A DNA stretch of 64,000 bases. Source: Planctomycetaceae bacterium. GTDB taxonomy: Bacteria; Planctomycetota; Planctomycetia; Planctomycetales; Planctomycetaceae. The stretch's first letter is position 1; every line of letters starts with the position of its first letter. The position numbers and the translations under genes are program-made. This document shows positions 11,362-57,194 of the stretch, one piece after another. The notes beneath the pieces are model-generated. The model saw nothing but the letters and a program-made list of their open reading frames with translations, did not search any database and was not told the DNA's origin. The stretch lies in the NCBI GenBank assembly GCA_046339535.1, contig JBKDUK010000416.1, positions 26,834-90,833 of the forward strand, written 5' to 3'.

Positions 11362-11567
11362 TTTCGCAGTATCCGGTCCTCAGCCTGATCCAGCCACGAA
11401 CAGGCAGAGAATCAGACAGCACCGCATTCGCCGGACGAGCCCGGATCGAAGTGGGCGTGGAATTGATTCATCAGGGGAAGATGTGCAACACTTCATGCTG
11501 CGATTCTCTCCCACCCAGCCCCACGTGTCAACTACACCCAAACATTTTTTTTGACTCCTCAAAATCT

Positions 11568-14089: not shown

Positions 14090-14639
14090 GATCCGAGGAT
14101 GCTCTCGTCGAGGAACTGCCAAACTCGCGGGAGACATTTCCCAAACAGCGCGGACAAATTCAGTTGGGCCGTTGAAGCTGCAAGGCGAGTTGCGTTCCAA
14201 AGTCCAGAAATTCCCCGAAAACCCGATCGAGCCTATCGCAAGAGCCCAAAATTTCCGCAGATTGAAACTCTGGAAAGACCTCGCCTGGAGAAACCTGCCG
14301 AACCGAATTCTGAAACAGCCTGCGGAAGGAATAGGCAAATCCTGCTGACACATTAAACAACTGCTGACTTTTCAGACACGATCAGACCCGACAGAGGGCA
14401 CAGCCAGGCTTCTCCCGAGGGGCGAATCGTGAACAGGAAGCGTTCCGCTCTGACCCAGCCGGAAACGAATCGGAGGCAAAGGACGGGCACCGAGCCGATC
14501 CGCGATCTTGCGCAAGTCCAGCAGGAACACGTCCTGGGCGAATCGGCCTCGAGCACTCCTCCACCAAGACTTTTCCCCGGTCGGTCGGTAATTTATGGCA
14601 TAGGGCCGGGTTCCGGCTGACTCATCAAGAGACGATCCC

Positions 14640-27232: not shown

Positions 27233-28249
27233 ATGAACCCCGCTCCACACGGCCCCACACCTGCCCGGATTCTCGAGACACTGAACGCTTTTCAGCGCAG
27301 CGCAGCCCTCAAGGCGGCCATCGATCTCGACCTGTTCACTCATCTGGGGCGGGGGGCGGCGACGGCTGGGGCACTTGCAGCCGCCTGTGGCGGAGACCCT
27401 CGGGCCACTCGCATTTTGTGCGATTATCTCACTGTCCAGGGGTTTCTGCGGAAGCAGGCAGAGAACTATGAGGCCGCTCCGGATGCCGCCTTGTTCCTCG
27501 ATCACAATTCCCCAGCGTACTTTGGATCGGTCACCGACTTTCTGCATTCGGGCCCGCTGCTCGACGCCTTCCGCGACATGGCCCAGACCGTTCGTCGGGG
27601 CCGGACACCATTGCCGGGTTCCGGAACGGTCGAAACGAACTTCGCAGGATGGGTCGATTTCGCCCGCTCGATGGTTCCCATGATGCGAAACCCAGCCGCC
27701 TTCCTCGGGCCATTCGCTGCCCGGCTGCGCCCCGGACCAATCCGGGTTCTGGATCTCGCCGCAGGACACGGTTTGTTCGGAATTGCCGTGGCCCGGGAGA
27801 ATCCCGCCGCACGGATCGTCGCCCTCGACTGGGCCCCGGTGCTGCAGGTGGCCCGCGAAAACGCCATCGCCGCGGGAGTGGCCGACCGGCACACACTGCA
27901 TCCGGGAGATGCCCTGCAGGTGGATCTGGAGGGGCCCTACCAGCTCATCCTCGTGACGAATTTCCTGCATCACTTTTCCCGCGAGACAAACGTCGCACTT
28001 CTCCAGCGGCTGGCGGGAGCCCTGGCTCCCGACGGACTGGTTTTGACGCTGGAATTCATCCCCAACGCCGATCGCATCTCGCCCCCCATGCCGGCCGAAT
28101 TCGCCCTGACCATGCTGGGGACGACGGCCGAGGGGGATGCCTATACCTTCGAAGAGTACGCGTCCATGTTCGAAGCGGCGGGCCTGACCCAAAACGAATG
28201 TCTGGACGTACCCGCTTCGACTCAACGGCTCATCATCAGCGGCCGCTGA
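27233..28249 (+). CDS. class I SAM-dependent O-methyltransferase (Methyltransf_2 / COMT-like, with N-terminal dimerisation domain)
   Basis: 338 aa. SAM-binding motif VLDLAAGHGLFG, plus LVTNFLHHF and the typical C-terminal O-MT family 2 blocks. Confidence 0.85.
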   Translation: MNPAPHGPTPARILETLNAFQRSAALKAAIDLDLFTHLGRGAATAGALAAACGGDPRATRILCDYLTVQGFLRKQAENYEAAPDAALFLDHNSPAYFGSVTDFLHSGPLLDAFRDMAQTVRRGRTPLPGSGTVETNFAGWVDFARSMVPMMRNPAAFLGPFAARLRPGPIRVLDLAAGHGLFGIAVARENPAARIVALDWAPVLQVARENAIAAGVADRHTLHPGDALQVDLEGPYQLILVTNFLHHFSRETNVALLQRLAGALAPDGLVLTLEFIPNADRISPPMPAEFALTMLGTTAEGDAYTFEEYASMFEAAGLTQNECLDVPASTQRLIISGR

Positions 28250-28329: not shown

Positions 28330-29790
28330 ATGGCCAACTCTCAGCACAGCCCTCAATTCTCCCCCCACATCATCATCGTGGGCGGGGGTGTTTCCGGTCT
28401 GGCGGCTGCCCACCGGCTGGGTGAATTGACCCAACAGACTGGTCGTCCGTTGCGAATCACGCTGCTGGAGGCGCAGGATTCGCTGGGCGGACTGGTGGGA
28501 ACACGGGAGACAGACGGCTATCGAATCGAGACCGGTGCCGATTCTTTCATCACCAACAAACCGGGAGCAATTCGACTCTGCGAGCGGATTGGATTGGCCG
28601 GTGAACTGATTCCGACCGACGCCCGCTACCGGCGGTCCCTCGTGCTGTCACGGGGTCACGCTGTGGCTGTGCCCGAGGGGTTTCAACTATTGGCTCCGAA
28701 CGCCCTGTGGCCGGTCTGGAAATCTCCAATTTTCTCTCTCGCCGGCAAGCTGCGTCTCGCAGCCGAACCGTTCGTTCCGCGTCCGAGGCAGCCCGTGCAG
28801 GACGAAAGCCTCGCCAGTTTCGTGCGTCGCCGGCTGGGAACCGAAGCACTGGAGAGGCTGGTGCAACCGCTGGTTGGGGGGATCTATACCTCCGATCCGG
28901 AACGTCTCAGCCTGCGGGCGACCATGCCCCGCTTTCTCGACATGGAGGCGCGTTACGGCAGCCTGATCCGTGGACTCCAAGCCGAGGGACGCGAAACGCT
29001 CCCTCAGGATCGCGCGGCCAGCGGAGCCCGCTATGGTCTGTTTGCCACCCCTCGCTGGGGGATCTCCCAACTGGTGGAATCTCTCACCGCGCGGGTCCGC
29101 CAATCTGCCGAGATCAGGACCGCGAGCCCGGTTCTGAACATTCGACACCGCGTCCAACCCGAGGGATTTCAACTCGATTTACCGAAGGGTGAGTCGCTGG
29201 AATGCGACGGCCTGGTGCTCGCCGCGCCCGCCCATCGCGCCGCGCAACTGCTGACAGCCGTTCGTCCTGTGGCTGCTTCTGCCCTGGGAAAGATCGAGTA
29301 TGCCTCGACTGTCATCGTCGTCAGCGGACATCGACTGGCCGACGTGGCCCATCCCCTGGATGCGTTTGGACTGGTCATCCCGGCGGTCGAACGCCGCCGA
29401 ATTCTCGCCGTCTCATTTACCAGCCGAAAGTTCCCGAATCGAGCCCCCGAGGGCTCGGTCCAATTGAGAACTTTCGTCGGGGGAGCGATGCAGCCCCAAT
29501 TCGTGGGTCTGTCCGACGAGGCGATCGTCGACCTGGTCCGGGAAGAACTGGCCGACCTGCTGGGAGTGAAATGGCGTCCCGAGGTGGTGGTCGTGGCCCG
29601 CTGGATGAACTCGATGCCCCAATACCATGTGGGTCACCTCGACATCGTCACCCAGATCGAGCAAGACCTCGCCACACTTCCCCGCCTGGCCCTGGGAGGG
29701 AACGCTCTGTACGGGGTGGGCCTCCCCGACACCATTGCGAGCGGCGAGGCGGCTGCCGAGCGCGTCTTCCAGGCCCTGTCCAACCACTGA
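28330..29790 (+). CDS. hemY: protoporphyrinogen / coproporphyrinogen III oxidase (HemY/CgoX family FAD oxidase)
   Basis: 486 aa. FAD dinucleotide fold IIIVGGGVSGLAAA, plus TDGYRIETGADSF, LSLRATMPRF, SMPQYHVGH and GVGLPD blocks that match Bacillus HemY block-for-block (from memory). Confidence 0.85.
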   Translation: MANSQHSPQFSPHIIIVGGGVSGLAAAHRLGELTQQTGRPLRITLLEAQDSLGGLVGTRETDGYRIETGADSFITNKPGAIRLCERIGLAGELIPTDARYRRSLVLSRGHAVAVPEGFQLLAPNALWPVWKSPIFSLAGKLRLAAEPFVPRPRQPVQDESLASFVRRRLGTEALERLVQPLVGGIYTSDPERLSLRATMPRFLDMEARYGSLIRGLQAEGRETLPQDRAASGARYGLFATPRWGISQLVESLTARVRQSAEIRTASPVLNIRHRVQPEGFQLDLPKGESLECDGLVLAAPAHRAAQLLTAVRPVAASALGKIEYASTVIVVSGHRLADVAHPLDAFGLVIPAVERRRILAVSFTSRKFPNRAPEGSVQLRTFVGGAMQPQFVGLSDEAIVDLVREELADLLGVKWRPEVVVVARWMNSMPQYHVGHLDIVTQIEQDLATLPRLALGGNALYGVGLPDTIASGEAAAERVFQALSNH

Positions 29791-36172: not shown

Positions 36173-36836
36173 AGTCTCCGGGAAACTCTGGGGTTCGACC
36201 CGGGTGGTAGCGTTTCGCAGCCGTTCCCGTCCCAGCAATTCGGGGTGTTCGGGAGCACAATGAATCCGGCGACCTGCCCCTCTGCCCCAGAGTCCAGGCC
36301 CGGAATGCATGCCCAACCACCACAGACAAATGGAGTTACGACAAATCAAAACAAATTGATCCACAAAATCGCGGGCTGTCTTGGTAAAATCTGGAGAGCA
36401 GCCGAGTCCCGGAGCTGAATCCGGGAGCGGGGGACCCAACGAATTCTCCCTTGGGGAGAGTTCTGGGGCGAAGATTGGCCACCAGGCGGGGGGAGAAATC
36501 CGCGCCAGAGGCCAGTCCGGGTGTCATTCAAGCCCGAGCCCGTCAGCTAACCTCGCAGGCTCGAACCACCATGGTGGTGGTTCAGATTGAATGGGCATTT
36601 CGTCTGCAATTCTCCACGACGCAGTGCCCTGTTGGTCAGTTTTGGCTTCACAGCGGTTCTGCACTGCGTCGCGCCGGCTTCCCCGGCGCCGATCTGGTTT
36701 CGCACAGTTAGACCCCTGCGGGTGGTCTCTGGCGGCATTCCTCTGCTCCCTGGCACTGCGAGCTCCCTCCGGGCGTCTCGCTGCGCCCTGAGCCGGGGTT
36801 CGCCCAACTGCGGTACCGCAGTGTCGCCGGAAAGGC

Positions 36837-39107
36837 ATGGCCATGTTCCTGGCTTTGTTTGTCCCGTCGGCTTCTGTATCGGCTCTCTTCTCCAGCTGGA
36901 ATCTCAGCGGGTGGATCTGGTGTCTGCTCATCTTCGCGTTGGGCTACCTGTTTTTGTGTGTGCGGTACATTCCCAACCATCGCGTGGGAGTTGTTGAGAA
37001 ACTCTGGTCAAACGCGGGATCCGTCCAGCAGGGAGGGATTCTGGCCCTCGATGGTGAAGCCGGCTTCGAGGCCGAACTGCTCCGTGGTGGGCTGCATTTC
37101 CATTACCCCCGCTGGCAGTATCGCATCCACTTCCATCCTCTGGTGACGATCCGCCAGGGACGGATTGGTTAGGTCTACGCCCGCGACGGCGAAGCGCTTC
37201 CCGCAGGGCAGACCTTGGCTCGCGTTGTGGAGTGCAACCACTTTCAGGATGCGCGTCGCTTCCTGACCGGTACGCCCGGAGAGCGGACTCCGTGCGGACA
37301 GCGCGGACGGCAACGGGCGATCCTGCGGGAAGGAGTCTACGCCATCAATCCCGCACTGTTTGTGGTCATTACCGAAGAAAAGGTGCATGCTCTGCGCAGT
37401 GGAATCCTCGACACCGAGTTCAGCCAGGTCCAGCAATGGGCCGAACTGCTGAAGTCGATGCGGGCCTTTCAGCCGGTGGTGGTGGGCGACACCATGACCG
37501 CCGCCGATCCCCTGCATCCCGAACAGGTCCACGAGGTCGACAGCATTGCGATTGTTACGGTGCATGACGGCCCCTCGCTCGAACCTGGCGCCATCATCGC
37601 CCCGCCGGTCGCAACCACACCGGGTGAGGAACATTACCACAACAACTTTCAGGACCCAGAAGCCTTCCTGGCTGCCGGCGGTCGGCGGGGGCGACAGTAT
37701 CAGCCGCTCACTGACGGTTCCTATTTCCTCAACCACTGGTTCGCCACGGTCCAAAAGATACCCAAGACGGTGGTGCCGATCGGCTATGTCGGGGTCGTGG
37801 TCAGCTATTACGGCAAAGCCGGGAAAGATCTCTCGGGGGTGAGTTTCCGCCATGGAGAACGGGTCTCGGAAGGCGAGCGGGGTGTCTGGGAGAGGCCCCT
37901 TGGACCGGGCAAATACGCCTTCAACACGTATGCGGGAAGCATTGTGCTGGTCCCGACAACCAACTTCGTCCTCCACTGGATCACCGGCAAGTCCGAGACA
38001 CACCGGTATGACGAAAGTCTTCGTTCCATCGACCTGGTCACCCGCGACGCCTACGAACCCCGTTTGCCGCTGTCGGTGGTGGTGCACATCGACTACCAAC
38101 GCGCTCCCAACGTCATTCAGCGGTTCGGAGATGTCAAAAAGCTGATCACGCAGACTCTGGACCCCATGCTGAGTGCCTATTTTCGCGATGTGGCCCACAA
38201 GAAGACCATGCTCGAACTGCTCCATGACCGGGATGCCATTCAACGGGAAGCCCGGGAAGAACTGCATCGCAAGTTCCATGAGTTCGACATGGAGTGCGTC
38301 GATGTGCTCATTGGCAAACCCGACGCCCAGGAGGGAGACACGAAAATCAACCAACTGCTCGAACAACTCCGCACCCGGCAGTTGTCCATCGAGCAACTCG
38401 AGACCTACGACCGTCAACGTGATGCCGCCGATCGACTGCGGATGTTGAACGAGGCGCAAGCCCAGGCCAACATGCAGACGCAGTTGACCAATGCCCGGGT
38501 CCAGATTGAGATTGTCGAAAACCAGGCGGCGGCCGAGTTGGCCAAATCGCGGAAGCAGGCCGAACAAGCCGCGGTCCACGCCGAAGGAGAACTCAACCGG
38601 GCCCGCAAACAAGCCGAGCAGGCCGTGGTCATGGCCGACGCCGAACTGCAGCGTGCCCGCCGTCAGGCTGACCAGACGGTCCTCATCGCCGAGGCCGACA
38701 GCCGCAGTACCATCCTCGCCGGGCGCGGCGAAGCCCAACGCGCCATGCAGATTGGTCTCGCGGAAGCGGCGGTCCTGCTGAAAAAGGTCTCGTCCTATGG
38801 CGATCCCCGGCTGTTCGCCCTGTCGTGTGTCTCGAAGAACCTCTCCGAGGCCACGCAACCGCTCGTCCCCGAACGGGTCTTCATGGCCCCCGGGGGAACC
38901 GCCGACGGGTCGGGAGCGAACGCCGCCTCGGGCCTGGTGGGGGTGTTGCTGAACCTGCTGATTGCCGAGAAATCAGGCTTCCAGCTCGTCGACGGCCCCG
39001 AGCAACAGCAACTCCGCGAACTGGCAGACAACCTCTCCCGTGAAGCGTTGGTGAACCTCCAGCATGGTGGATCGTCCCCTCAGACCAAAGAGATTCCCTC
39101 CGCGTGA
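36837..39107 (+). pseudogene. SPFH/band-7 (flotillin-like) membrane protein gene interrupted by a single in-frame TAG at 37170-37172 (fragments 36837..37172 and TTG-initiated 37215..39107)
   Basis: ORFs 36837..37172 and 37215..39107 are in the same frame. The read-through sequence is continuous: ...HFHPLVTIRQGRIG*VYARDGEALPAGQTLARVVECNHF. It has an N-terminal TM helix (LSGWIWCLLIFALGYLFLCV), an SPFH core, and a C-terminal coiled-coil region rich in Q/A/E/R (AELAKSRKQAEQAAVHAEGELNRARKQAEQA). Confidence 0.6.
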
Positions 39108-39239: not shown

Positions 39240-40280
39240 TCAGGGCTTGCCGAACAGATAGTGCGAGACGCCCCACTCTTCACCCTGGGCGTAGTCAAAC
39301 AATTCGGCACACGCCATGAAGAACACCCGCCAGCGATGAAACCACAGTTCGGCGGCGTCGGCTCCGTAGGCCTCGGCCAGAATCGGCATCACCGTCGACC
39401 GCCGGGCGTCCTGGAGGGCCAGCCAGGCGTTGCAGGTCTGCGCGTAGTGCCTGCCGTTCCACCGCCAGCGATGCCGAAGCTGCAAATCCCGCTGGAAACG
39501 ATGCAACAGTCCGTCACTGGGCATGATCCCCCCGGTGAAGAAGTACTTCCCCATCCAGTCGTCGGGCCCCTCAGTCTCGAAAGGGTAAGCCAGTCGATCG
39601 TGCGTAAAAATGTGCACGAAGAGACATCCCCCGGACCGCAGCCACGTACTGATCCGGCGCAGGAGCTCTTCATAATTCCGCATATGTTCGAACATCTCGA
39701 CAGAGACCACCCGGTCGAACTCTCCTTCCGGCTGGAAGTGGTTCATGTCGGCGGTCAGCACCGTGACGTTGGACAGGCCCCGCCCCCTGGCCAGCTTCTC
39801 GATTTCAAGGCGTTGCGGCGTGGAATTCGAAACTGCGGTGATCTTCGCCTGCGGATATCGGGCGGCCATCCACAAGGTCAACGAGCCCCAGCCACATCCC
39901 AACTCGAGAATGCGGGCCCCATCAAACAGTTCCGCTCGTGCACAGGTGACCTCGAGCGCCCGCTCCTCCGCCTGGTCTAGCGTTTGGACTCCCTGATCCC
40001 AAAGGCAGCAGCTGTATTTGCGGTGCTTCCCCAGCACTTGCTGAAAGAACCCGGGCGGGACCTCGTAATGCTGTTCATTGGCCTTCTCGGGAACGAGTGC
40101 CACAGGACTTTGGCGTAGCCGTTCCACGAACCTCTCAATCGACTCCTGGTTGCGCTCGCATTCGAGGTTGTCAGGTTCGGCCAGGCGGGCCGCCAGCAGC
40201 TTGCGGATTCCCATCCGAGTCATCCAGTCGGGCAGTCGTCCCCGTTCCGCCTGCAACGCTCCCCAGGAAGTGATGCTCAT
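39240..40280 (-). CDS. cyclopropane-fatty-acyl-phospholipid synthase family SAM-dependent methyltransferase
   Basis: ORF 39240..40502 trimmed to MSITSWGALQ... (346 aa). Has the SAM motif ILELGCGWGSL and Cfa-family blocks (HYE.P..FF, VSVEMFEHM, GG.MPS). Its ATG overlaps the upstream DUF1295 stop (ATGA). Confidence 0.85.
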   Translation of the reverse strand: MSITSWGALQAERGRLPDWMTRMGIRKLLAARLAEPDNLECERNQESIERFVERLRQSPVALVPEKANEQHYEVPPGFFQQVLGKHRKYSCCLWDQGVQTLDQAEERALEVTCARAELFDGARILELGCGWGSLTLWMAARYPQAKITAVSNSTPQRLEIEKLARGRGLSNVTVLTADMNHFQPEGEFDRVVSVEMFEHMRNYEELLRRISTWLRSGGCLFVHIFTHDRLAYPFETEGPDDWMGKYFFTGGIMPSDGLLHRFQRDLQLRHRWRWNGRHYAQTCNAWLALQDARRSTVMPILAEAYGADAAELWFHRWRVFFMACAELFDYAQGEEWGVSHYLFGKP

Positions 40281-41074
40281 CAGATCGCCCGCTTCTCCCT
40301 GGGAAACCAGGGGAAAAAACTGTTTGTGGTCGCCTGGTATTCCCGGTAGGCAGCGCCCCGTGAGCGCAGGGCCTGGGCCTCGGTGGGAGGGATCCCGGTC
40401 ACCCGGGTCAGAAACCAATACATGACCAGCGGTCCAGCGAGGGCGAATCCTCCCCCCGGAGCCCCCACAGCCAGCAGGGGGTAAACCCACCAATGGAGCC
40501 ACTCAAAAAAGTAATTGGGGTGCCGGGTGTAGTACCAGAAGCCCGTCCGACAGACCTGCCCCCGATTGGCGGGATTCATCCGAAACCGCTGCAGTTGCCA
40601 GTCTGCGACCGCCTCGCCCGCCACGGCCAGCAGCCAGAGCGTGATTCCCGCCCAATCGGTGGGCCCTGGGAATGGGCTCGGGTTCGAGGCGGCGAACAGA
40701 ATGGGGAGGGCGAAAAGCACACTCCACAATGCCTGCAGCTGAAAAAAGCCAAACAGCTTACGCTGGGCGTTGGGTCCCCACTCTTCCCGCAAACTCTGAT
40801 AGCGGCCATCCTCGGGCATCCGACGCAGCCGGGCCGCGATGTGTGCCGAGAGCCTGAGTGACCAGATCAATACCAGACTCGCGAGCAGCAGCCGGCGGTT
40901 GGGGTTCCCGTGCTCCGACAGCCAGCAGAACAGGGTACCAAGCAATCCAACTCCCAGCCCCCAGGCCACATCGACAATCCCGGCATCACCCCGCCGCAAC
41001 TGATACCACCACAGGGCGGACATGGCGATGCTCATGCCCACCCAACCCAGCAGCAAGGCAAAAACCAACTCCAT
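40280..41074 (-). CDS. DUF1295 domain membrane protein (steroid 5-alpha-reductase / ICMT-like fold)
   Basis: ORF 40280..41227 trimmed to [18 protein letters not shown]... It is polytopic, with the DUF1295 C-terminal block GFWYYTRHPNYFFEWLHWW. It has ATGA overlaps at both ends with the flanking cfa genes. Confidence 0.8.
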   Translation of the reverse strand: MELVFALLLGWVGMSIAMSALWWYQLRRGDAGIVDVAWGLGVGLLGTLFCWLSEHGNPNRRLLLASLVLIWSLRLSAHIAARLRRMPEDGRYQSLREEWGPNAQRKLFGFFQLQALWSVLFALPILFAASNPSPFPGPTDWAGITLWLLAVAGEAVADWQLQRFRMNPANRGQVCRTGFWYYTRHPNYFFEWLHWWVYPLLAVGAPGGGFALAGPLVMYWFLTRVTGIPPTEAQALRSRGAAYREYQATTNSFFPWFPREKRAI

Positions 41075-42411
41075 CAGTCGCGCTCCGAGATCTGGAACCG
41101 TCGTTGGGGCCGGACTGTGGCCGGTTCCACAGGTCGGCCAACATCGATCGGATCGCCCCGCCAGCCCGCTTTGGCCAGCATCAACTGCGAGAGACCGATG
41201 TACCGCTCCTGAAACGCCGCCTCGCAATAGCAGAAGTAATAGGTCCAGATGCGGATGAACCGCTCGTCGAACCCAAGACCGCGAACCTCTTCCAGACGCG
41301 TCTCAAACCGTTCCCGCCAGCAACGCAGAGTCCGGGCGTAGTGCTCGGCGAAATCCTCCATGTGCAGAGGATAGAGATCCGTGGTTCGGGCAGCTGCCCC
41401 GGTCAATGCGGAGACGGTGGGCAGACATCCGCCTGGAAAGACGTAGCGCTGGATGAAGTCGGTGGACTTCAGGTACGCCTGATATCGCTGCTCGAACATG
41501 ACGATTCCCTGCAGCAGCATCAGTCCATCGGGCTTGAGCAACTCCCCACACTTGCGGAAGAACGTGTCGAAGAATTGATGCCCGACCGCCTCGATCATCT
41601 CAATCGAGGCGATCTTGTCGTACTGCCCCTCGAGGTGTCGGTAATCGCACTTCAGGACACGAACCCGATCCGCAAGCCCGGCTTCCGCGATTCTCCGGGT
41701 GGCGAACGAGTGCTGCTCTTCCGAGATCGTGGTCGTCGTGATCCGGCAGCCATACGTTCCTGCCGCATGCAGGGCAAATCCTCCCCACCCGGTCACAATC
41801 TCCAGCAAATGATCCCGGGACGAGAGCCGCAGTTTGCGGCAGACACGATCGATCTTTTCCACGGACGCCTCGTGAAGCGAGGCCTCCGGATGCGGGAAAA
41901 TCCCGCTGGAATACATCATTGTTTCGTCGAGAAACAAGCGAAAAAAGTCATTGCCCAGATCGTAGTGGGCGGCAATATTCCGACGGCTTCCCCCGGGAGT
42001 GTTCTTGCGCAGCCAATGCCACGCCTGGGCTCCCCAGTTTGCAACGCGGGCCATGCCGGTATCCATCGACATCAACAGCGATTCGTTCCGCACGAACAGC
42101 CGGATCAGGTTGGTGAGATCATCCACCTCCCATTCGCCGTCGATGTATCCCTCCCCTGCCCCCAGGCTGCCGCCCCACAACATGCGGCCATACACCCGCG
42201 GATTGTGAATCGTGACCTCGCACTCAATCGAATCCTGAAAGGCTGAATCGGGTGTTCCCAGGGTCTGGGTACCGCACGGTTCGTGCAGCAAAATCCGCCC
42301 CCCCCGCAAGGCTGCCATCTGACCCAGGACCAACCGTCGCGCCTGGCGATCACTCCAGCGGGAGCGACGCTGCGTCGGGGCTGCGGAGGAGGATGAGGGG
42401 CTGGCAATCAT
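41074..42411 (-). CDS. cfa: cyclopropane-fatty-acyl-phospholipid synthase
   Basis: ORF 41074..42558 trimmed to MIASPSSS... (445 aa). Shows full-length Cfa architecture with [17 protein letters not shown] motif [15 protein letters not shown], and [11 protein letters not shown]. Confidence 0.85.
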
Positions 42412-43175
42412 GATTTCGATTCCTTGTGCGAGAGCGCCCCGGGATGCGGGACGTAGGGCACCCGTTTGGTCCACAACCGCAGTGCCTGCCAATAGATTCC
42501 TGCTGTGACCTGGGCGGTCATGAGGGGATACCTCATCAGCACCCGGGAAAGATTCCATCCAGACATTGACTGACGTTGCAGCCGCAACGCCGCGTCGAAC
42601 AACAACTCTTCACCACGTCGGTTCTGGATGCCGACACGCAGCAAATCTCCAGGCACGGACAGCCTCCAGACGTAGTCCATGTCCATCTGCATGAACGGCG
42701 ACACATGAAACTGTTTCGCGTGCCTGTTCGTCAACTCTTCCGGGTCTTGGTCGCGGACATCAATCACGTAGCAATGCCGCTCTCCCCAGGGAGTGTTGTG
42801 GACCTCGGCCACCAATGTCTCGACGCGGATTCCCTCCCGATCGAAGCAGTAGTAGAAACTGACCGGGTTCATCACGTACCCGAAGTGTCGAACCTGGGTC
42901 AGCAGGCGGATGGGTCCGTCGGGTAAGGAATGGGTCTGCGACCGGACAAGTTCGCGAACGGAATCGGCCAGGGACACATTGGGATCCCCCAGGTGATCGG
43001 ACCGGCGGAACCACGCCAGATTAAAACCTCGAGTCGACCAGAACCAGCGTCCCCGAAAGACCTCATCGACCTCCTCGAGGTCGAGGTAGGTCATGTAGAG
43101 CCGGTAGCCGAATTCGTGGCGAACGGGAGTGAAGCGACAGTGTCTGACCCAGCCTTCGTAGAGACAACTGTGCAT
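42408..43175 (-). CDS. DUF1365 domain protein
   Basis: 255 aa. The N-terminus [33 protein letters not shown] matches the characteristic DUF1365 start (L/MY.G.V.H.R..P..H.F.Y..F...LDL). Confidence 0.8.
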
Positions 43176-44497
43176 GCTTCTTCCTCACCGAGCAGGGCGC
43201 TGCAGACAGCCAGCGCGCTCTTGACGCCATCCTCATGAAACCCGTTCCCCCAGTAGGCCCCGCAGAAAGAAGAGCGATTCTGGTTGAGCAACTCGCCGTG
43301 CCGCTTCTGGGCGGCGGCTCGTCGGGTCGTGTAGACCGGATGGGCGTAAGTGTAGCGGCCCAGAACCCGTCTGGGATCGATCTTGGCAGTCGAATTCAAC
43401 GTGACGAGGTAACGGTGCCTCTTCCGCAGGTTTTGCAGGAGATTCATGTCGTAGGTCAGGGTGGCTTCGGCAGCCGTATCCAGACCGATGTGGTAGTTCC
43501 AGGCGGCCCACGCGCCCCGTCTTCGGGGCATGACCTCCACGTCCGTGTGCAAAACCACATCGTTGACGTGGTAGGGAAACTCAGCGAGCACTTCCCGCTC
43601 CGTCGCGCTCGGTTGATCCAGCATTCTCAGTGCCTGGTCACTGTGGCACGCAAAGACCACGTGATCAAACGTTCCCAGATTCCCTTCCGAGGAATGCAAG
43701 GTGACGGATTCCTCACCTCGCATCACCCGGCTTACGGGAGTCTGGAGCCGAATCGCAGACTGAAATGGCTCCGTCAGGCGGCGGACGTACTCTCGGGAAC
43801 CTCCCACGATCGTTCGCCACGTGGGACGCTGAGTGACGCTCAGAAGTCCATGATTCTTGTAGAATTCAACGATGAAGCGGATGGGAAACTCCGCGAACAC
43901 TCCCGGAGGACAGGTCCAAATCGAGGCCCCCATGGGAATGAGATATCGATCGGCGAAAGAAACACCGTATCCCATTCGGTGCAAATAGGCCCCAACCGTC
44001 TCGGCATTGTCCGGATCGGCCAAAATCCCGGGCGAATCACGATTGAACCTCAGGATGTCTTGGATCATCCTCCAGAAGGCCGGGCGAAACAGATTGCGCT
44101 TTTGCACAAACATCCCACCCAACGTTCCGCCATTGTACTCCCATCCGGAGCGGTCACAACGGACACTGAAGCTCATATTCGTGTCCTGCCAGGACACCCC
44201 CAACTCATTCAACAGCCGGATAAAATTTGGATAGGTCCAATCGTTGAAGACGATAAAACCGGTATCGATTGTTGATTGTTCACCCTCAAACTCCACATCG
44301 ACCGTGTGGGTATGTCCTCCCACATAATCGGCCCCATCAAACATCGTCACTTCATGTCGCCGCCTCAAATAATGGGCCGCGGTCAATCCGGAAATCCCTG
44401 TGCCGACAATCGCAATCCGCAAGTTCCACTCCAGTCGAAGATCGTGGGCACAGGGTCCAACCCGCTCAACAACCACCCTCAGCCCGCGGTCTGCCAA
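43091..44497 (-). CDS. FAD-dependent oxidoreductase (flavin amine-oxidase family)
   Basis: 468 aa. Dinucleotide-binding [17 protein letters not shown], followed by amine-oxidase family blocks. It overlaps the downstream DUF1365 gene by 85 nt. The N-terminal 27 codons may be an over-extension. Confidence 0.85.
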
Positions 44498-45489
44498 CGG
44501 GTGATGGTCGCTCCCCGCTGCATCTTCTCAATGGCCTTCAGTTCAATCTGACGCACCCGTTCCTTGCTGACCTGAAGTGCGTCCGCCACCACCTGCAACG
44601 TGGCGGGCTCACTTCCCGGCTGCAGTCCAAACCGAAGTGCCACCACCAGTTGTTCACGCTCGCTGAGTTGCTGCGACATCAACTCGCGAACCTGGCTTGC
44701 CTGCCGCAGTTTGTCGGTTTCAACGCTCACCGGATCCGAGTCATCCGGAGAGTTGGCGAGCATCTCAGAGATCCCCAGTGTGCAACGAGCGCTCTCATTC
44801 CGCCGCTTCCGGATGATTCGGAAGAAGTCGCGTTGGACGGCATGGGTCGCGTAGGTGCTGAACCTGAAACCGCGACCGTAGTCAAATTTCTCAACCGCAT
44901 TCAGCAAAGCAACATTGCCGTCACTGACGAGGTCATCAAACGAACAGAGGTCATTCGCGAACCGTCGGGCAATCGAAACGACGAGCCGCAGGTTTGCACG
45001 GATGATCCGATCCCGAACTTGGCCTGCCAGAGCGATCCAGCCCTCAGCCTCAGACACCAGATTCGAAGCCGGAGCTTCAGGATTGATCTCCGAGCGCAGT
45101 GAATTGGCCCTGAATTTGAACAGATTCATCAGGCGGAACAGAGCTTTTTCCTCATCTGCAGTCAGCAGTGGGGTGGCATAAAGTTCCTGAAAATAGGCCG
45201 GAACATCAGCAGGAGCTTGCCGCGTCCGACCCGCTCCATTCGGCGACATCGAATGGAACTCCGCCTTCGCCTTCTCAACATCCATGCGGGAGAACGCCCG
45301 GTTGTGAATGAAGGCAATCTCGCGACGGAGCAGTTTCTCTGCCCGAGCCGGCAGGGTGGGGTCCGAAAATTGAGCCTTGGATCGGGCCACACTGGACCGG
45401 GGGGTGCCGGACTTGCCGGCTCCGCCCGTCTTGGAAGCGCCCTTAGCCGTCGTGGAACCCTGGGAGCGGGAAATCGAACGAGACTTCAT
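44479..45489 (-). CDS. sigma-70 family RNA polymerase sigma factor (non-ECF; regions 1.2-4 present) with Ser/Gly/Lys-rich N-terminal tail
   Basis: ORF 44479..45564 trimmed to MKSRSISRSQG... (336 aa). Region 2 RANLRLVVSIARRF...FDDLVSDGNVALLNAVEKFDYGRGFRFSTYATHAVQ, region 3, and region 4 HTH LQVVADALQVSKERVRQIELKAIEKM are all present. It is transcribed toward the cfa cluster. Confidence 0.8.
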   Translation of the reverse strand: MKSRSISRSQGSTTAKGASKTGGAGKSGTPRSSVARSKAQFSDPTLPARAEKLLRREIAFIHNRAFSRMDVEKAKAEFHSMSPNGAGRTRQAPADVPAYFQELYATPLLTADEEKALFRLMNLFKFRANSLRSEINPEAPASNLVSEAEGWIALAGQVRDRIIRANLRLVVSIARRFANDLCSFDDLVSDGNVALLNAVEKFDYGRGFRFSTYATHAVQRDFFRIIRKRRNESARCTLGISEMLANSPDDSDPVSVETDKLRQASQVRELMSQQLSEREQLVVALRFGLQPGSEPATLQVVADALQVSKERVRQIELKAIEKMQRGATITRWQTAG

Positions 45490-45540
45490 GATCGTTGATC
45501 CTTGAGGCGAGAGACACTGTGTTCCATCGGAATTCCGACG

Positions 45541-45630
45541 AACAAAATCGTTCAATTCGTGCACCGGATTATTGACCCCTCCTTAACGATTTTGCAAGCA
45601 GAAAAACGTGCAAATCGTTCATTTCCAGAA
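45541..45630. promoter_or_regulatory. three copies of CAAAATCGTT (direct, inverted, direct) in the sigma-factor / CarH-like divergent intergenic region: candidate operator
   Basis: Seen directly as acAAAATCGTTCAattcg (about 45543), ttAACGATTTTGcaag (about 45585, inverted) and gCAAATCGTTCAtttcc (about 45613). A degenerate fourth copy aatCAGTCGTTCGaat lies near 45681. Confidence 0.35.
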
Positions 45631-45719
45631 ATTCGCCGCAAATACATGCCAGAATGGATCTTAAGAAGACTGGCCTTGAAATCAGTCGTTCGAATCATAC
45701 CATTTTGAGCGATTTGTGA

Positions 45720-46637
45720 ATGATTCGGAGGGAATCATCGATCGCTTTTTTCAATACATCTCGCCGAGATTCCATCGTGCAGGAACTTGTGACGCCGAAG
45801 CAAGTCGCCAGGGCGATTGATGTCAGTGAATCATCGGTCAAACGCTGGTGCGACCGGGGAATCATTCCGTCCGTCAAAACTGCGGGGGGTCACCGTCGGA
45901 TTCCGATCGCTGCCGTCATCTCTTATCTCAGGGAGACCAAACAACCGTTGGTGGCTCCAGAGGTATTGGGGCTTCCCGCAACGTCTGGTCAATCCCGGTG
46001 GGTTCAAGATCGTGCGTTGGATGTGATTCTTCAGGCCTTGACGGCTGGAGACGCAGACCGGTCGCGGCAAATCCTGTTCGACCTGTGGCTGTCGGGAAAG
46101 CCGCTGGCGGTCATTTTTGACGAGGTCGTTGCCCCGGCCTTCGCACGGATTGGGCAGCAATGGGCCTGCGGCGAACTGGAGATTTACCGCGAGCGGCAAG
46201 CCTGCGAAATCATGACCCGGGTTCTGTTCGAATTCCGCCTCGGAACTCCCCCCGGTGATCCGGGGCTCCTGGCCCTGGGGGGCACCATTCCCGGGGACCA
46301 TTATGTGATCCCGACCACAATGGTCGAACTTGTGCTGCAATCGGCGGGCTGGAACTCCCGCTCTTTGGGGAATTCTGTCCCCTTTTCCTCGTTCTGCAAG
46401 GCCATTGCGGAGAATCGTCCGCGTCTGTTTTGGCTGAGTATTTCTCATGTCGAGACCCCTGACGAGATTGTGCCCGGGGTCCGCTCGCTCTACGAAGCGA
46501 TCAAGGATGTGAGGGGATTCCTGGTGATTGGGGGGAATGGCCTGGCTCCCGAGATCCGGGAACAGTTGCCGATGGATCATTTTTGCTGCAGCCTGCAGCA
46601 ACTGGTTCGATTTGCCGACAGTGTGAAGCCAAGCTAG
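45720..46637 (+). CDS. CarH/LitR-like transcriptional regulator: MerR-family HTH fused to a cobalamin (B12)-binding domain
   Basis: 305 aa. N-terminal MerR/excisionase-type HTH (VTPKQVARAIDVSESSVKRWCDRGIIPSVKTAGGHRRI). Then a helical B12-binding cap with conserved Trp (FARIGQQWACGELEIYRERQACEIMTRVL). Then a Rossmann-like B12-binding fold with the DxH motif (LGGTIPGDHYVIPTTMVELVLQSAGW...LSISHVETPD). Confidence 0.75.
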   Translation: MIRRESSIAFFNTSRRDSIVQELVTPKQVARAIDVSESSVKRWCDRGIIPSVKTAGGHRRIPIAAVISYLRETKQPLVAPEVLGLPATSGQSRWVQDRALDVILQALTAGDADRSRQILFDLWLSGKPLAVIFDEVVAPAFARIGQQWACGELEIYRERQACEIMTRVLFEFRLGTPPGDPGLLALGGTIPGDHYVIPTTMVELVLQSAGWNSRSLGNSVPFSSFCKAIAENRPRLFWLSISHVETPDEIVPGVRSLYEAIKDVRGFLVIGGNGLAPEIREQLPMDHFCCSLQQLVRFADSVKPS

Positions 46638-54829: not shown

Positions 54830-55555
54830 TCAGTGCGAACAGATCGTCCAGTGCCGGTCGCTGGTAGCCGTCACCCAGGAGGACGGCAGGCCCACCTGCT
54901 GTAACAGGTGGGCCACTTCATCGACGGTCAGGGCGGCCCGCAACGACTCGGCGAACAACCGCCGCTGGTGCGGATTGGCACCGGCGGCATGTTGCTCGAC
55001 CAGGCATTCCAGGATCGCCTGATCAGTCGGACGCATCAGGTCCCGCACAAACAAGGCACCGCCGGGTCGCAATACCCGCACCATCTCGCGCAGAGAATGC
55101 AGCGGCTCCGGGATGTGGTGAATGATGCTGTTCGAAATGACGGCGTCGTAACTCGCCGATGCATACGGAAGTCGCTTGGCATCCACCAGTTCCAGGCGAA
55201 TGGCCGCGGTCACTCCTGCCCGCTCCAGATTGCGCTGCCCCAATTTCAGCATCTCGCGGGACAGGTCAATCGCCACGATGTCGACATCGGGCCGGCGCCG
55301 GACAATCTCAATCGGGATTTGGGCCGTCCCCGTTCCCACATCCAAAACCCGGCAGCGCCCCGCAGGCCGGTCGGTGCTGTTCTGCAGCAACTGGGCGAAC
55401 TGATCGGCAAACAGACCATTCACGAACGAATGATCCATCGTGTCGTAGTCGAGTGCCTCCTCGGCCGTGTCCATCACTTCCGGTTCCAGCACACGCGACA
55501 ACATCGGAACATCCTCTTCATTTTCAAGGTGGGGGCCAGAGTGCCGCCGGGGCAT
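54830..55555 (-). CDS. class I SAM-dependent methyltransferase
   Basis: 241 aa. SAM motif VLDVGTGTAQIP and DIVAIDLS. The last gene of a minus-strand run after the PQQ-propeller gene (stop/start adjacent). Confidence 0.8.
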   Translation of the reverse strand: MPRRHSGPHLENEEDVPMLSRVLEPEVMDTAEEALDYDTMDHSFVNGLFADQFAQLLQNSTDRPAGRCRVLDVGTGTAQIPIEIVRRRPDVDIVAIDLSREMLKLGQRNLERAGVTAAIRLELVDAKRLPYASASYDAVISNSIIHHIPEPLHSLREMVRVLRPGGALFVRDLMRPTDQAILECLVEQHAAGANPHQRRLFAESLRAALTVDEVAHLLQQVGLPSSWVTATSDRHWTICSH

Positions 55556-57076
55556 TCATTCCGCAGCCAGGTCGAGCGCAATCAGGTGGTACTCATAATC
55601 GGTGAACCCACCCAGCCCCCGGAACTGACGGGCCCCGGTGATGAACAACCGCCGGCGTGAGAGCACGGGTGCCGTCCAGCACGGATAGCCCATCTCGGGA
55701 AATTTCACCCGGCTGATCTCCCGAAACTCTTTGGGATTCAGATCGACGAGGGCCAGGGTTCCCCGTTCTCCCATCACGATCAGCCGACCATCTGCGAGGA
55801 TAGCTGAGCCGCGGCCATAGTACCTGGGAACACTGACCCCCAGGCCTGCCTTCGGGTCGGGTTCTTCGTCTTCGTTCACATCGCGGGTTCGCCACATCAG
55901 CTCACCATCACTCGCCCGCAGGCATCGCAGGTTCGAGCCCGGTTCGTGCCGTCCGCTGAAGCCGTACAGAAAACCGTGATGCTCGATGGTGGTGGACCAG
56001 TGCGTTTGCATTGCGTCAAGGTCTTTCCAGACTTCTTCCGCTCCCTTGCCATCGGGCTGGACCTTCAGCATCAAGGCACCGGTCTCATATGCCGCCGAGA
56101 GAAAAATCTGGTCGCCGGTCACCACCGGTCGGGCCGCATTGACCGAATCATGAATTGGCGACCGGAACCAGGTGGCGAAGTTGACCTCGCCCGTCTCGGG
56201 TTCGAGCGAGACCAGTCCCGGCCGCATGAAACAGAGTAGATGTTTGCGGCCGTGAATCGTGGCCAGCAATGGAGACGAGTAACTGGCCAGCTTGGCGGGA
56301 GGCCGGTCGCGCTCGATCCGCATGGGGGCATTGGGAAATGTTTCCGGGCCAACGTTTTCCCAGAGTGTTTTCCCGGTCTTCCGATCGAAGGCGACCATCC
56401 CCGACTTGGGGTGCCCGCCCACCATCACAAACAACCGGTCGCCATCCAGAACGGGAGTCGAACCGACGCCAAAAAAACCGCGGGGAATCCGGAAGTCTTT
56501 CTGCGTATCACGCTGCCAGATCTGTTTTCCGGACGCAAGATCGAGGCACGTGAGCTTCCCCTCGGCTCCATAGGTGAAGCAGTGCTCAGCGGTCAGCAGC
56601 GGAGAACAGCGGGGACCGCCATTGTATCCGTAGGGATCACTGAAACTGGTTGGGTACGAGTGACTCCAGACCTCCGCCCCGGTCTCGGGAACAAAACAGT
56701 CGATTCGCTCTTCGTCCTCGATGCGATGAAAGAACACCAGCCGGTCGCCCCGGATCGACGGGGCGGCGTAGCCTTCACCCACCTTCTTTTTCCACAACAC
56801 CGGCGGCCCCTTCGCGGCCCATTCCGGCAAGAGTCCCGTCTCTCCCGAGATCCCCGTTCCCCGGGGCCCCAGAAACTCGGGCCAGTCCTCACCCATTCGC
56901 CTCTGGGCCGGCGTAATGCCCGCCTGGGTCTGGGGAACTTCCGGGATCTCTTCCCGGTGGAAGTGCGGATTGGCGGAAGATCCCCGCTGGTCATCCCCAC
57001 GCCCAACGGCGGTGAACACACTCAGCAGGCCGACACCAGCGAGGGCCCAACCCCAGCCACGACGCGCATTTGGCAT
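55556..57076 (-). CDS. PQQ-like (BamB/quinoprotein-type) beta-propeller repeat protein, secreted
   Basis: ORF 55556..57304 trimmed to MPNARRGWGWALAGVGLLSVFTAVG (signal). Has repeated PQQ-like W-motifs (GAEVWSH, GKQIWQRD, GKTLWEN, GELMWRTRD). Confidence 0.75.
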   Translation of the reverse strand: MPNARRGWGWALAGVGLLSVFTAVGRGDDQRGSSANPHFHREEIPEVPQTQAGITPAQRRMGEDWPEFLGPRGTGISGETGLLPEWAAKGPPVLWKKKVGEGYAAPSIRGDRLVFFHRIEDEERIDCFVPETGAEVWSHSYPTSFSDPYGYNGGPRCSPLLTAEHCFTYGAEGKLTCLDLASGKQIWQRDTQKDFRIPRGFFGVGSTPVLDGDRLFVMVGGHPKSGMVAFDRKTGKTLWENVGPETFPNAPMRIERDRPPAKLASYSSPLLATIHGRKHLLCFMRPGLVSLEPETGEVNFATWFRSPIHDSVNAARPVVTGDQIFLSAAYETGALMLKVQPDGKGAEEVWKDLDAMQTHWSTTIEHHGFLYGFSGRHEPGSNLRCLRASDGELMWRTRDVNEDEEPDPKAGLGVSVPRYYGRGSAILADGRLIVMGERGTLALVDLNPKEFREISRVKFPEMGYPCWTAPVLSRRRLFITGARQFRGLGGFTDYEYHLIALDLAAE

Positions 57077-57194
57077 GACGCCACCCGTTCCATCCCGAGT
57101 TCCAGGCACAGTCACCGCGCGGGCGTCCGCTGTCGCCGAACCAGACGCTTCCGAATTGAATCGCATTTCCCCTCCGGAATTCAAGGACAACGTG

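Follow-up and report, generated by a model that had tools for sequence, protein, structure and literature searches.

A putative photo-oxidative stress module in Planctomycetota built on a CarH/LitR-family regulator without the cobalt-ligating histidine

We analysed a stretch of 64,000 nucleotides from a Planctomycetaceae bacterium (NCBI GenBank assembly GCA_046339535.1, contig JBKDUK010000416.1, positions 26,834 to 90,833 of the forward strand; hereafter the window, numbered from its first letter). Positions 39240-46637 of the window hold seven genes: six on the minus strand and, divergent from them, one plus-strand gene for a regulator with a helix-turn-helix (HTH) and a B12-binding domain. 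An earlier note on this DNA had proposed that the locus is a light- and B12-gated stress module, in which a CarH-like photoreceptor acts through a sigma factor on membrane-lipid genes. We consider it probable, though well short of assured, that the locus is a planctomycete photo-oxidative-stress module resting on a non-canonical member of the CarH/LitR family. The regulator, here called B12R, has the CarH fold with a tyrosine in the position of the cobalt-ligating histidine; a predicted two-site operator brackets the promoter of the divergent gene string; the string opens with a sigma factor of unusual build; and the enzymes that follow (the ufa genes) match a pathway for furan fatty acids (FuFAs).

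Domains were called with Pfam profiles on the open reading frames (ORFs) of the window, bit scores being compared with family cut-offs. B12R (45720..46637, plus strand) combines a winged-helix DNA-binding domain of the BldC/HTH_17 type, a four-helix bundle and a Rossmann domain resembling those that bind B12. Of the profiles that the earlier note had expected, B12-binding_2 passes (36.3 bits, cut-off 23) and an HTH domain is recognized by HTH_17 (42 bits), whereas MerR (25.6 bits against 28.2) and the Rossmann B12-binding profile (21.3 against 32.1) both fall below their cut-offs. The MerR-type winged helix of CarH and class I LitR proteins is nonetheless present, as HTH_17 passes and the domain aligns to those of CtMerR and BldC. 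By sequence, the best relative in the PDB is CtMerR (8JBS/8JBT, E 2.7e-27), followed by the photocobilins and TtCarH. An AF2 model of the regulator (pLDDT 87.6, residues 1-20 disordered), compared by Foldseek with the B12-binding domain of CtMerR (8JBS), gives a TM-score of 0.85 and a root-mean-square deviation of 2.1 Å. Fold and domain order thus bear out the claim that a regulator of the CarH/LitR type lies divergent from the sigma factor gene. Homologues begin at about residue 20, and translation may in fact set out from the GTG at 45777. The identical protein is recorded on 21 metagenome contigs, and in three of these places the independent gene calls are the same.

CtMerR is an experimentally validated adenosylcobalamin (AdoCbl) photoreceptor, with a light-responsive signature that comprises GxxW, EH, GxxH and GxxxP (PMC11796333). 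Two of these four elements are kept in B12R (G145-Q-Q-W148 and G217-x3-P221), and EH and GxxH are absent. The Wx9EH motif reads W148-x9-E158-R159, and the lower-ligand motif, G192-D193-H194-Y195-V-I-P198 ... S240-I-S242 ... G271-G272, is complete except that the histidine is replaced by Tyr195. The classical B12 motif is D/ExHxxG/P...SxT/V...GG, and the CarH literature treats its His, together with Wx9EH, as crucial (PMC9304148). We counted these motifs in 121 close homologues (the window protein and its 120 closest) and in 150 representatives of clusters formed at 50% identity. Tyr occupies the ligand position in all 121 close homologues and in 137 of the representatives, while 7 other representatives have Phe there and 1 has His. 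Arg stands at the EH-His position in 120 of the 121 and in 135 of the 150. The remaining positions of these motifs (G145xxW148, E158, D193, the P198-type residue, G217xxxP221, S240xS242 and G271G272) are 86-100% conserved among the representatives, and R42 is conserved in 99%. H194 was considered as a shifted cobalt ligand and ruled out, the position being variable (Q, P, H or N) next to an invariant Y195. Conserved cysteines were likewise considered as an Fe-S or redox site: C150, C162 and C289 are conserved in close relatives, but in the wide family C44 is present in 92% and C150 in only 45% (67 of 150), which leaves this a minor possibility.

By its defining motifs, B12R is not a class I (AdoCbl) CarH, and the same motifs indicate that its sensing chemistry cannot be canonical His-on adenosylcobalamin. 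Direct control by light through adenosyl-B12 photolysis, as the earlier note had envisaged, is undercut by these results: the B12-binding profile is below its cut-off and, of the His and Trp expected on alignment, W148 is present while the ligand His is Tyr195 and E158-R159 replaces EH. The retained motifs of the Rossmann pocket suggest that some ligand is still bound, a corrinoid or another tetrapyrrole held in a His-off mode over the invariant Tyr. Rossmann-type B12 domains that bind cobalamin base-off/His-off are found in the corrinoid Fe-S protein and in TsrM. Our searches, which do not cover all publications, found no literature on a planctomycete CarH/LitR protein or on the Tyr variant.

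The 230-bp region between the regulator and sigma factor genes holds repeated words of the form AAATCGTT(C), and such 8-mers are enriched 14-25-fold in the 350 nt upstream of B12R across 81 loci. Aligning all occurrences of CGTTCA revealed a 9-bp period. Upstream of B12R, the repeat unit AAWTCGTTC (at most one mismatch) has a density of about 3 sites per 360 nt; the background in the rest of the loci is 0.216. Neighbouring units on the same strand are spaced exactly 9 bp in 73 cases. The corresponding 18-mer, AAWTCGTTCAAWTCGTTC (at most two mismatches), is found only twice in the 64-kb window, with 0 expected from 100 shuffles. The two predicted operator sites, both on the plus strand, are site 1 at 45545..45562 (AAATCGTTC AATTCGTGC) and site 2 at 45603..45620 (AAAACGTGC AAATCGTTC); each is a tandem pair of 9-bp AAWTCGTTC direct repeats, and they lie 58 bp apart, start to start. 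Across loci the 18-mers are almost always on the strand of the regulator, and the paired layout recurs in 33 loci (32 related loci and the window) at an inter-site distance of 56-60 bp, with a mode of 58.

Between the two sites lies a predicted sigma-70-like promoter on the minus strand (45568..45597), with a -35 element TTGCAA (45597..45592), an 18-nt spacer and a -10 element AATAAT (45573..45568); the consensus scan that located it returned 2 promoter-like sites against 0.2 expected. Read on the minus strand, the 33 loci have 38-42 nt between the sites, with TTGC(A/C) 4-5 nt after site 2 and a TATAAt-like element some 17-18 nt beyond it, 5-7 nt before site 1. In the window, 5 nt separate the -10 from the downstream site 1, which covers the predicted transcription start; site 2 lies just upstream of the -35, adjoining the promoter region of the regulator itself. 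The -35/-10 pair would be the promoter of the sigma-ufa operon.

The DNA-binding domain of B12R aligns without gaps to BldC (PDB 6AMA, E 2e-6) and keeps the base-contacting Arg that reads a C-G pair, at an NCBIfam HTH_BldC score of 39.5 against a cut-off of 77. BldC protomers bind 9-bp AATTxxxxC repeats head-to-tail, two per 18-mer, and the AAWTCGTTC unit fits this protomer site (PMC5859096). Because the domain aligns to BldC and the unit fits the BldC site, we read the repeats as the predicted operator of B12R, with two protomers per site and four per promoter. The repeats were also considered as promoter elements of the sigma factor; this was rejected, as they occur in loci without a sigma gene, match the BldC site and have a separate -35/-10 pair between them. 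By analogy with CarH, the regulator would repress rather than activate, and a tetramer would bridge the two sites.

The first gene behind the bracketed promoter (44479..45489, minus strand; ORF 44479-45564) encodes a sigma-70 family factor of 336 residues, with Pfam matches to Sigma70_r2 (63 bits) and Sigma70_r4 (48 bits). It had been described as full-length, with regions 1.2 to 4. That description does not hold: Pfam returns no match to Sigma70_r3, Sigma70_r1_2 stays below threshold (17.8 bits against 22), and the protein passes from a basic low-complexity N-terminal tail through an EIxFIxNxxF motif, region 1.2 and region 2 to a short linker and region 4. Alignment to HrdB/SigA in the PDB extends over regions 1.2-2.4 and region 4, with the region 1.2-like segment YFQELYATPLLTADEEKALF aligning to region 1.2 of HrdB. 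The linker has 43 residues instead of the 103 of HrdB; the sigma-3 domain is therefore missing. The short-linker build and the N-terminal EIxFIxNxxF motif are common to 17 aligned family members, and NCBIfam scores of about 120 bits to RpoD, RpoS and SigB are far below all cut-offs. Lack of sigma-3 is a trait shared with extracytoplasmic function (ECF, group 4) factors, but the region 1.2-like segment sets the protein outside that class, and without region 3 it also falls outside groups 1-3 of the sigma-70 family. The earlier claim that a non-ECF sigma factor and a CarH/LitR-family protein stand in place of an ECF sigma/ChrR pair is borne out; no ECF sigma or ChrR-like anti-sigma gene was found among the window ORFs scanned, a set of the larger ORFs that is not exhaustive below 110 residues.

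Across the orthogroup of this sigma factor, a conserved N-terminal RAxxLLxxEIxFIxNxxF stands ahead of region 1.2, and the window copy has, before that segment, some 50-55 residues of basic tail rich in Ser, Thr, Gly and Lys. Primary sigma factors typically carry the Trp pair of YATWW in region 2.4, in place of which the orthogroup reads YATHA or YAYRA. Of the 39 sigma factors encoded next to B12R, a neighbour-joining tree groups 37 in one clade of 41 leaves; three of the four other leaves come from loci with less than 1.1 kb of DNA upstream of the sigma gene (one of them with operator sites), and the fourth lies at the far end of a ufa cluster. By this tree the factor is a dedicated orthogroup, found almost only next to B12R. 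The broader idea that any sigma factor of this type marks the module was discarded, since a scan of metagenome contigs yielded mostly paralogues, 1 of 80 being next to B12R. Operators are absent upstream of the non-adjacent paralogues, with the exception of two contigs truncated on that side.

The distribution of operators bears on what the sigma factor might do. In 15 of 16 divergent loci without a sigma gene, and in locus L055, an operator-like site lies between B12R and the ufa cluster, whereas five loci (L012, L014, L015, L028 and L033) have a sigma gene and a ufa cluster with no operator in view. This pattern makes it most likely, in our reading, that the signal reaches unlinked promoters by way of the sigma factor. 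The ufa genes of the window would ride on the sigma transcript, and the sigma factor may be unneeded for them. Control of the lipid genes through the sigma factor, as proposed in the earlier note, is thus not required, since the ufa genes lie in the same string behind the operator-flanked promoter and 16-17 loci have no intervening sigma gene. A palindrome of about 45 nt, GGGGTTGCCTAACTTCTAGCATATTAGCTGACCGGCAACCC, occurs in the divergent DUF1295/cfa-like promoter region of two Pirellulaceae metagenome-assembled genomes (MAGs; L014 6880-6925 and L028 10655-10700). It was tried as a promoter element of the sigma factor and set aside as uninformative, being present in these two close relatives only; it could be a site for another regulator, and the ufa cluster there is without a B12R operator.

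Behind the sigma factor gene, and separated from its stop by a gap of 56 nt, the string continues on the minus strand with the gene for a UfaD-like, flavin adenine dinucleotide (FAD)-dependent fatty-acyl desaturase (43091..44422, TTG start at 44422; ORF 43091-44497; Amino_oxidase/NAD_binding_8). It is followed by genes for a UfaO-like DUF1365 protein (42408..43175; Pfam DUF1365 284 bits), a cfa-family S-adenosylmethionine (SAM)-dependent methylase in the UfaM position (41074..42411; ORF 41074-42558; Pfam CMAS 279 bits), a DUF1295 membrane protein of a steroid-reductase-like fold family (40280..41074; ORF 40280-41227; Pfam DUF1295 243 bits) and a second, more divergent cfa-like SAM methylase (39240..40280; ORF 39240-40502; Pfam CMAS 132 bits). 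Pfam, and independent gene calls on contigs with the identical regulator, confirm the gene content and coordinates given before. Of the ATGA start/stop overlaps that the earlier note had described, only the one at the DUF1365/methylase junction holds; elsewhere the junctions are TGATG with a 1-nt overlap (methylase/DUF1295 and DUF1295/second methylase), the 56-nt gap, or an 85-nt overlap between the flavoprotein and DUF1365 genes (43091-43175). This last figure takes the ATG at 43175 as the DUF1365 start, because the Pfam match begins at residue 5 of the 255-residue ORF; the automatic gene caller sets a later start at 43094, an ATGA at the flavoprotein stop, which drops 27 profile-matching residues. 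With start/stop overlaps at four of their junctions, the ufa genes are a tightly coupled gene string.

FuFA synthesis in Rhodobacter sphaeroides involves the desaturase UfaD (RSP1091), the DUF1365 protein UfaO (RSP1090), which inserts O2 and forms the furan ring, and the cfa homologue UfaM (RSP2144); in Rhodopseudomonas palustris the contiguous genes RPA2571-2570-2569 (RPA2571 being UfaD) suffice for synthesis of 9M5-FuFA, and a further methylase, FufM, 26% identical to UfaM, makes the dimethyl form (PMC7380195). The window order of flavoprotein, DUF1365 protein and methylase is the ufaD-ufaO-ufaM order of RPA2571-2569. The DUF1365 protein corresponds to UfaO by its domain, and the flavoprotein to UfaD by its FAD oxidoreductase domains and by the position of its gene, directly upstream of ufaO and overlapping it. 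Of the two methylases, the first is a candidate UfaM by its CMAS domain and its place in the gene order; the second, about 25% identical to the first, is an unproven candidate for a FufM-type methylase. Judged by these matches, the enzymes belong to the furan-fatty-acid pathway, not to the membrane-lipid cyclopropanation that the earlier note had named, and furan fatty acids would be the product of the window cluster. We regard it as improbable that the cluster yields cyclopropane or merely methyl-branched fatty acids, with the flavoprotein and the DUF1365 protein doing something else. Such a product would suit the presence of two CMAS-family methylases, and RSP1089, a cfa-like gene within the RSP1091-1087 operon, is indeed unneeded for FuFA synthesis (PMC7380195). 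Yet the cluster has homologues of both UfaD and UfaO, in translational coupling with the methylase; in R. palustris, three homologues in this order are enough for FuFA synthesis; and the first methylase scores 272 bits against the NCBIfam Cfa equivalog, under the cut-off of 400 for a genuine Cfa.

The same enzymes are found beside a different regulator in Proteobacteria. A tblastn search of plasmids identified, in Mesorhizobium terrae, an ECF sigma-ChrR operon that runs into a DUF1295 and a cfa-family gene and faces a string of FAD oxidoreductase, DUF1365, cfa and fasciclin genes, with a photolyase-family gene nearby. On a Pseudoalteromonas (P. donghaensis) plasmid the order is sigma-ChrR-DUF523-phrB-...-FAD oxidoreductase-DUF1365-cfa. 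Window proteins are 42-45% (oxidase), 40% (methylase) and 38% (DUF1365) identical to those of the ChrR-linked proteobacterial clusters, and identity to genes of the M. terrae rpoE-chrR operon is 43% for DUF1295 and 52% for the second methylase; all five window enzymes have homologues (38-52% identity) around rpoE-chrR on the M. terrae plasmid. This plasmid and a published account (PMC3546557) support the statement of the earlier note that oxidase, DUF1365 and cfa genes form the core set of ChrR and sigma-E.

To follow the module beyond one genome, we ran a pattern scan with one genome per species, which returned at least 587 relatives of the regulator, and used the best 80 loci for counts. All 80 are from Planctomycetota (Planctomycetaceae, Gimesia, Schlesneria, Pirellulales, Thermoguttaceae, Adhaeretor mobilis and Lacipirellula limnantheis), and the Tyr-for-His clade comprises at least 579 clusters at 50% identity. 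Counts of neighbours, made by tblastn with window proteins and by ORF clustering, are lower bounds, as many contigs are short. Near the regulator we found UfaD in 44 of the 80 loci, UfaO in 43, the sigma factor and cfa in 39 each, DUF1295 in 32, a PQQ_2 propeller in 27, a membrane and SRPBCC protein in 26, fasciclin in 20, NAD_binding_10 with DUF2867 in 18, and a DCC1-like protein and a class II cyclobutane pyrimidine dimer (CPD) photolyase in 8 each. The photolyase-like ORF has no Pfam match, and a PDB sequence search assigns it to the class II CPD photolyases (E 8e-71 to 8OET); folE (GTP cyclohydrolase I), Dps and DCC1 near the regulator were confirmed by Pfam. In 37 loci the 10-kb flanks are complete; of these, 33 have at least one recurrent partner and 31 have the ufa cluster or the sigma factor, each of which occurs in 21. 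The closest relatives of the window locus are from Planctomycetaceae MAGs, at 92% and 86% identity.

The regulator and ufa genes occur in at least five gene orders. The sigma factor heads the cluster in 15 cases including the window; in 16-17 loci the cluster is divergent from the regulator without a sigma gene, usually with the SRPBCC gene first; in 7 it is co-directional and downstream of the regulator, after the PQQ_2 gene; in 5 it is convergent, with the sigma gene divergent; and in 1 it lies upstream. Additional operators precede fasciclin(-DUF2867-photolyase) strings and, in L055, ufaD; the two-site sandwich also stands ahead of a fasciclin operon in L034, L059 and L075. The link between regulator and ufa genes is thus conserved across Planctomycetota in several gene orders, and the gene-neighbourhood comparison that the earlier note had called for comes out in its favour. 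One contig of a Planctomycetaceae MAG (JACKHM010000001.1, loci L042 and L054) carries two regulator and sigma pairs, each with a two-site operator; paralogous modules therefore coexist in one genome. In the window itself, a PQQ_2 beta-propeller gene (55556-57304, minus strand) lies 9 kb from the regulator, beside a UbiE-type methyltransferase gene (54830-55555), and in many related loci (27 of 80) a member of this PQQ_2 family is encoded right behind the regulator.

These observations suggest the following scheme. B12R would bind head-to-tail, through its BldC-type winged helix, to the two 18-bp operators that, 58 bp apart, bracket the sigma-70-like minus-strand promoter at 45568-45597; four DNA-binding domains would fill the four repeats, in line with the tetramers of CarH and CtMerR. 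In the resting state, the divergent operon would be off, as probably would the promoter of the regulator itself. A signal would lift repression and give rise to one transcript for the sigma factor, UfaD, UfaO, the UfaM-type methylase, the DUF1295 protein and the second methylase. In the membrane phospholipids, the enzymes would then turn vaccenate chains into methylated furan fatty acids, which act as scavengers of singlet oxygen; unlinked genes would most likely be brought into the response by the sigma factor. Light, or something that follows from it, is the most likely signal, given that genes for photolyase, GTP cyclohydrolase I, Dps and fasciclin are in the regulon of the relatives.

Several considerations weigh against this scheme. 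B12R may not sense light itself, or may not bind B12 at all, because the published signature fails at two points (EH reads ER, and GxxH reads GxY); and the Y195 position is probably not a metal ligand, because Phe replaces Tyr in 7 of the 150 representatives. MerR-family proteins can be activators, the sandwich geometry is without characterised precedent, and either the housekeeping sigma factor or that of the module could serve the promoter between the operators. No sigma-dependent promoter motif was found at the heads of the operator-less ufa clusters of L014, L028 and L015. As for the syntenic methylase, its counterpart could be not UfaM but R. sphaeroides RSP1089, without which FuFA synthesis still proceeds (PMC7380195). 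Functional claims for planctomycete carriers are, moreover, drawn from sequence.

Other explanations differ on the nature of the signal. The earlier note took B12R to be a true adenosyl-B12 CarH photoreceptor; in such a model, AdoCbl tetramers would repress in the dark and be freed by photolysis of the Co-C bond, after which the sigma factor would transcribe the lipid genes. The CarH/CtMerR fold and domain order speak for this, as do W148 and E158 of the Ado-contacting motif, the retained GxxxP, SxS and GG pocket motifs, the photoprotective flavour of a regulon that includes photolyase, and the label 'light-induced transcriptional regulator' that source databases give to homologues. We nevertheless hold it to be unlikely, given the near-universal exchange of the cobalt-ligating His (137 Tyr and 7 Phe to 1 His in 150) and of EH for ER (135 of 150), a signature reduced to two of its four validated elements (PMC11796333), a Pfam B12-binding score below the cut-off, and the weight that the CarH literature places on His and Wx9EH (PMC9304148). 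Loss of both histidines of CarH photochemistry would be expected of a chromophore-free, B12-independent repressor, whose DNA binding is relieved indirectly; such relief could come from an antirepressor or partner photoreceptor with its gene elsewhere, from oxidation of cysteines (C44, C150, C162 or C289) or from a lipid-derived product of singlet oxygen. There are precedents in CarA of Myxococcus, which is B12-independent (PMC9304148), and in class II LitR, the effector of a LOV protein (PMC9758184); the clade has conserved cysteines of its own, and the FuFA genes of Rhodobacter feed back on singlet-oxygen signalling (PMC3546557). What makes this account somewhat unlikely in our view is that the full set of Rossmann pocket motifs is near-invariant despite the loss of His, a conservation that a protein without a ligand would hardly be expected to show. 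Degeneration took other routes in CarA and class II LitR, through loss of the Trp and of the Rossmann domain, respectively; no LOV, BLUF or antirepressor-like gene recurs among the gene families near B12R; and C150 is found in only 67 of the 150 representatives.

The conserved pocket motifs would also be compatible with a regulator that senses the supply of a cofactor (cobalamin, heme or another tetrapyrrole) rather than light, and that controls a metabolic or membrane-remodelling operon unrelated to photo-oxidative stress. Tyrosine is a common heme ligand. A B12-binding-like domain can indeed take up heme, as in the SCHIC domain of AppA (PMC3760249). This account seems to us very improbable, because the neighbourhood of photolyase, folE, Dps, fasciclin and FuFA genes is the light and singlet-oxygen set of Pseudomonas, Rhodobacter and Vibrio (PMC5241685), no genes for B12 or heme biosynthesis or transport recur among the families beside the regulator, and the 64-kb window contains no cobalamin riboswitch. 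Within the photo-oxidative-stress reading that we prefer, a bolder version would make the Tyr clade a new photochemical class that senses light directly through a His-off corrinoid or tetrapyrrole, its tetramer clamping two BldC-type double repeats on either side of a promoter, in an operator geometry not described before, and its sigma factor spreading the response to photolyase and other genes; we offer this version tentatively, as a possibility that we ourselves regard with doubt.

Comparison with characterised systems places B12R among several partial counterparts. The module would behave as a photoprotection switch of the LitR/CarH kind and, where the sigma factor takes part, as a cascade of the LitR-LitS kind (PMC11519972), with effector genes known from the ChrR/sigma-E regulon. 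CtMerR (8JBS/8JBT) and TtCarH (5C8D) have the same architecture of winged helix, four-helix bundle and Rossmann domain; the DNA-binding domain of CtMerR is almost identical to that of the window regulator (SESSVKRW.D...T.GGHRR), and the Trp, Glu, GxxxP, SxT/S and GG motifs of these proteins are also kept. Unlike both, the window clade has Tyr195 for the lower-ligand His and Arg159 for the EH His. The TtCarH operator consists of contiguous 11-bp repeats, whereas the window operator consists of two separated 18-bp sites around a promoter. CarH operators are direct repeats (PMC9304148), and the predicted targets in the window, FuFA genes and a sigma factor, differ from the carotenoid genes controlled by CarH. 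BldC, a developmental regulator of Streptomyces (6AMA), has the base-contacting Arg of B12R and a 9-bp head-to-tail register that matches the AAWTCGTTC repeats, but it has 68 residues, is without a sensor domain and forms filaments on variable numbers of repeats, in contrast to the planctomycete rule of exactly two repeats per site and two sites per promoter.

CarA, the B12-independent CarH paralogue of Myxococcus xanthus, is a repressor with the CarH fold that has partly lost the chromophore signature and responds to light and singlet oxygen; it keeps the His motif and EH and has lost the Trp, whereas the planctomycete clade keeps the Trp and has lost both His (PMC9304148). Relief of CarA repression comes from the antirepressor CarS; we saw no comparable partner gene near the planctomycete regulator. 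In Pseudomonas, class II LitR proteins (PplR1-3/PmlR) mediate light induction of phrB, ufaM, a FAD oxidoreductase gene, folE and their neighbours (PMC9758184), nearly the same gene set as around the planctomycete regulator. These proteins retain the four-helix bundle alone and require a LOV photoreceptor, while the planctomycete protein keeps its Rossmann domain; no sigma factor is reported for the Pseudomonas system, and no LOV partner recurs near B12R. LitR classes II-V, by their descriptions (PMC9758184), are all set apart from the window regulator. In Streptomyces, LitR and LitS pair a B12-binding MerR-type regulator with a dedicated sigma factor that acts on photoprotective genes (PMC11519972); LitS is an ECF sigma factor, in contrast to a window factor with region 1.2, a group-1/2-like region 2 and no region 3, and LitR is a canonical AdoCbl protein with carotenoid targets, from which the window regulator and its targets differ. 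The RpoE-ChrR system of R. sphaeroides and other Proteobacteria has the same effectors (ufaD, ufaO, cfa-type methylases, DUF1295, fasciclin and photolyase) and the same divergent layout of regulator genes against a ufaD operon (PMC3546557; M. terrae and P. donghaensis plasmids). That system works by anti-sigma proteolysis; for the window, whose scanned ORFs include no ECF sigma or ChrR gene, a DNA-binding repressor with operators is predicted instead.

Other features of the window lie outside the module. A c-di-AMP riboswitch (ydaO/yuaA, RF00379; 61.4 bits against a gathering score of 38) at 36390-36576 on the plus strand stands just upstream of a Band_7/SPFH gene (36837-39107, plus strand) that converges on the end of the ufa operon. 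At 7035-12314 a minus-strand operon of the Znu/Mnt type encodes an ABC transporter (ZnuA 10507-11361, ATPase 9746-10510, ABC-3 permease 8709-9749), the second permease of which (7035-8708) is fused to a C-terminal Fe_dep_repr_C domain, a metal-binding domain of the DtxR type; a DtxR-family repressor with a FeoA domain (11451-12314) is divergent from it. On the plus strand, an O-methyltransferase that has a dimerisation domain (27233-28249) and, behind it, a second Amino_oxidase flavoprotein (28330-29790, 192 bits) are both unrelated to the ufa genes. In an ammonium transporter ORF of 646 residues (12413-14353, minus strand), the Ammonium_transp match covers residues 276-640 only; either the protein is extended by about 275 residues at its N-terminus or the start is wrongly placed.

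The earlier note did not recall this arrangement from planctomycete-like genomes, and its novelty stands in part. Control of ufaM, phrB and folE by light through the LitR family is already described in Pseudomonas (PMC9758184), as is the cascade of LitR and its sigma factor LitS in Streptomyces (PMC11519972); for Planctomycetota we found nothing on CarH/LitR proteins. The new elements are the Tyr/Arg clade, the two-site operator of BldC type on either side of a promoter, a sigma factor limited to regions 1.2, 2 and 4, and the prediction of FuFAs in this phylum. Planctomycetota would thus be makers of furan fatty acids; we found no mention of planctomycetes in the paper on the FuFA pathway (PMC7380195). 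Across phyla, one photoprotection set of FuFA genes, photolyase, fasciclin and folE appears wired to three unrelated sensory systems, namely ChrR with an ECF sigma factor, a LOV protein with class II LitR, and a Tyr-variant CarH-like repressor, a clear case of regulator replacement around a fixed set of effectors. The 18-bp operator and the sandwiched promoter provide a direct experimental handle in cultured carriers such as Gimesia, Adhaeretor mobilis and Lacipirellula limnantheis. The Tyr clade keeps every motif of the cobalamin pocket save two histidines, and the published signature would class it as non-photoreceptive; if the clade does bind a chromophore, the rules by which B12-type photoreceptors are recognized, and the optogenetic toolbox built on them, would need to be widened.

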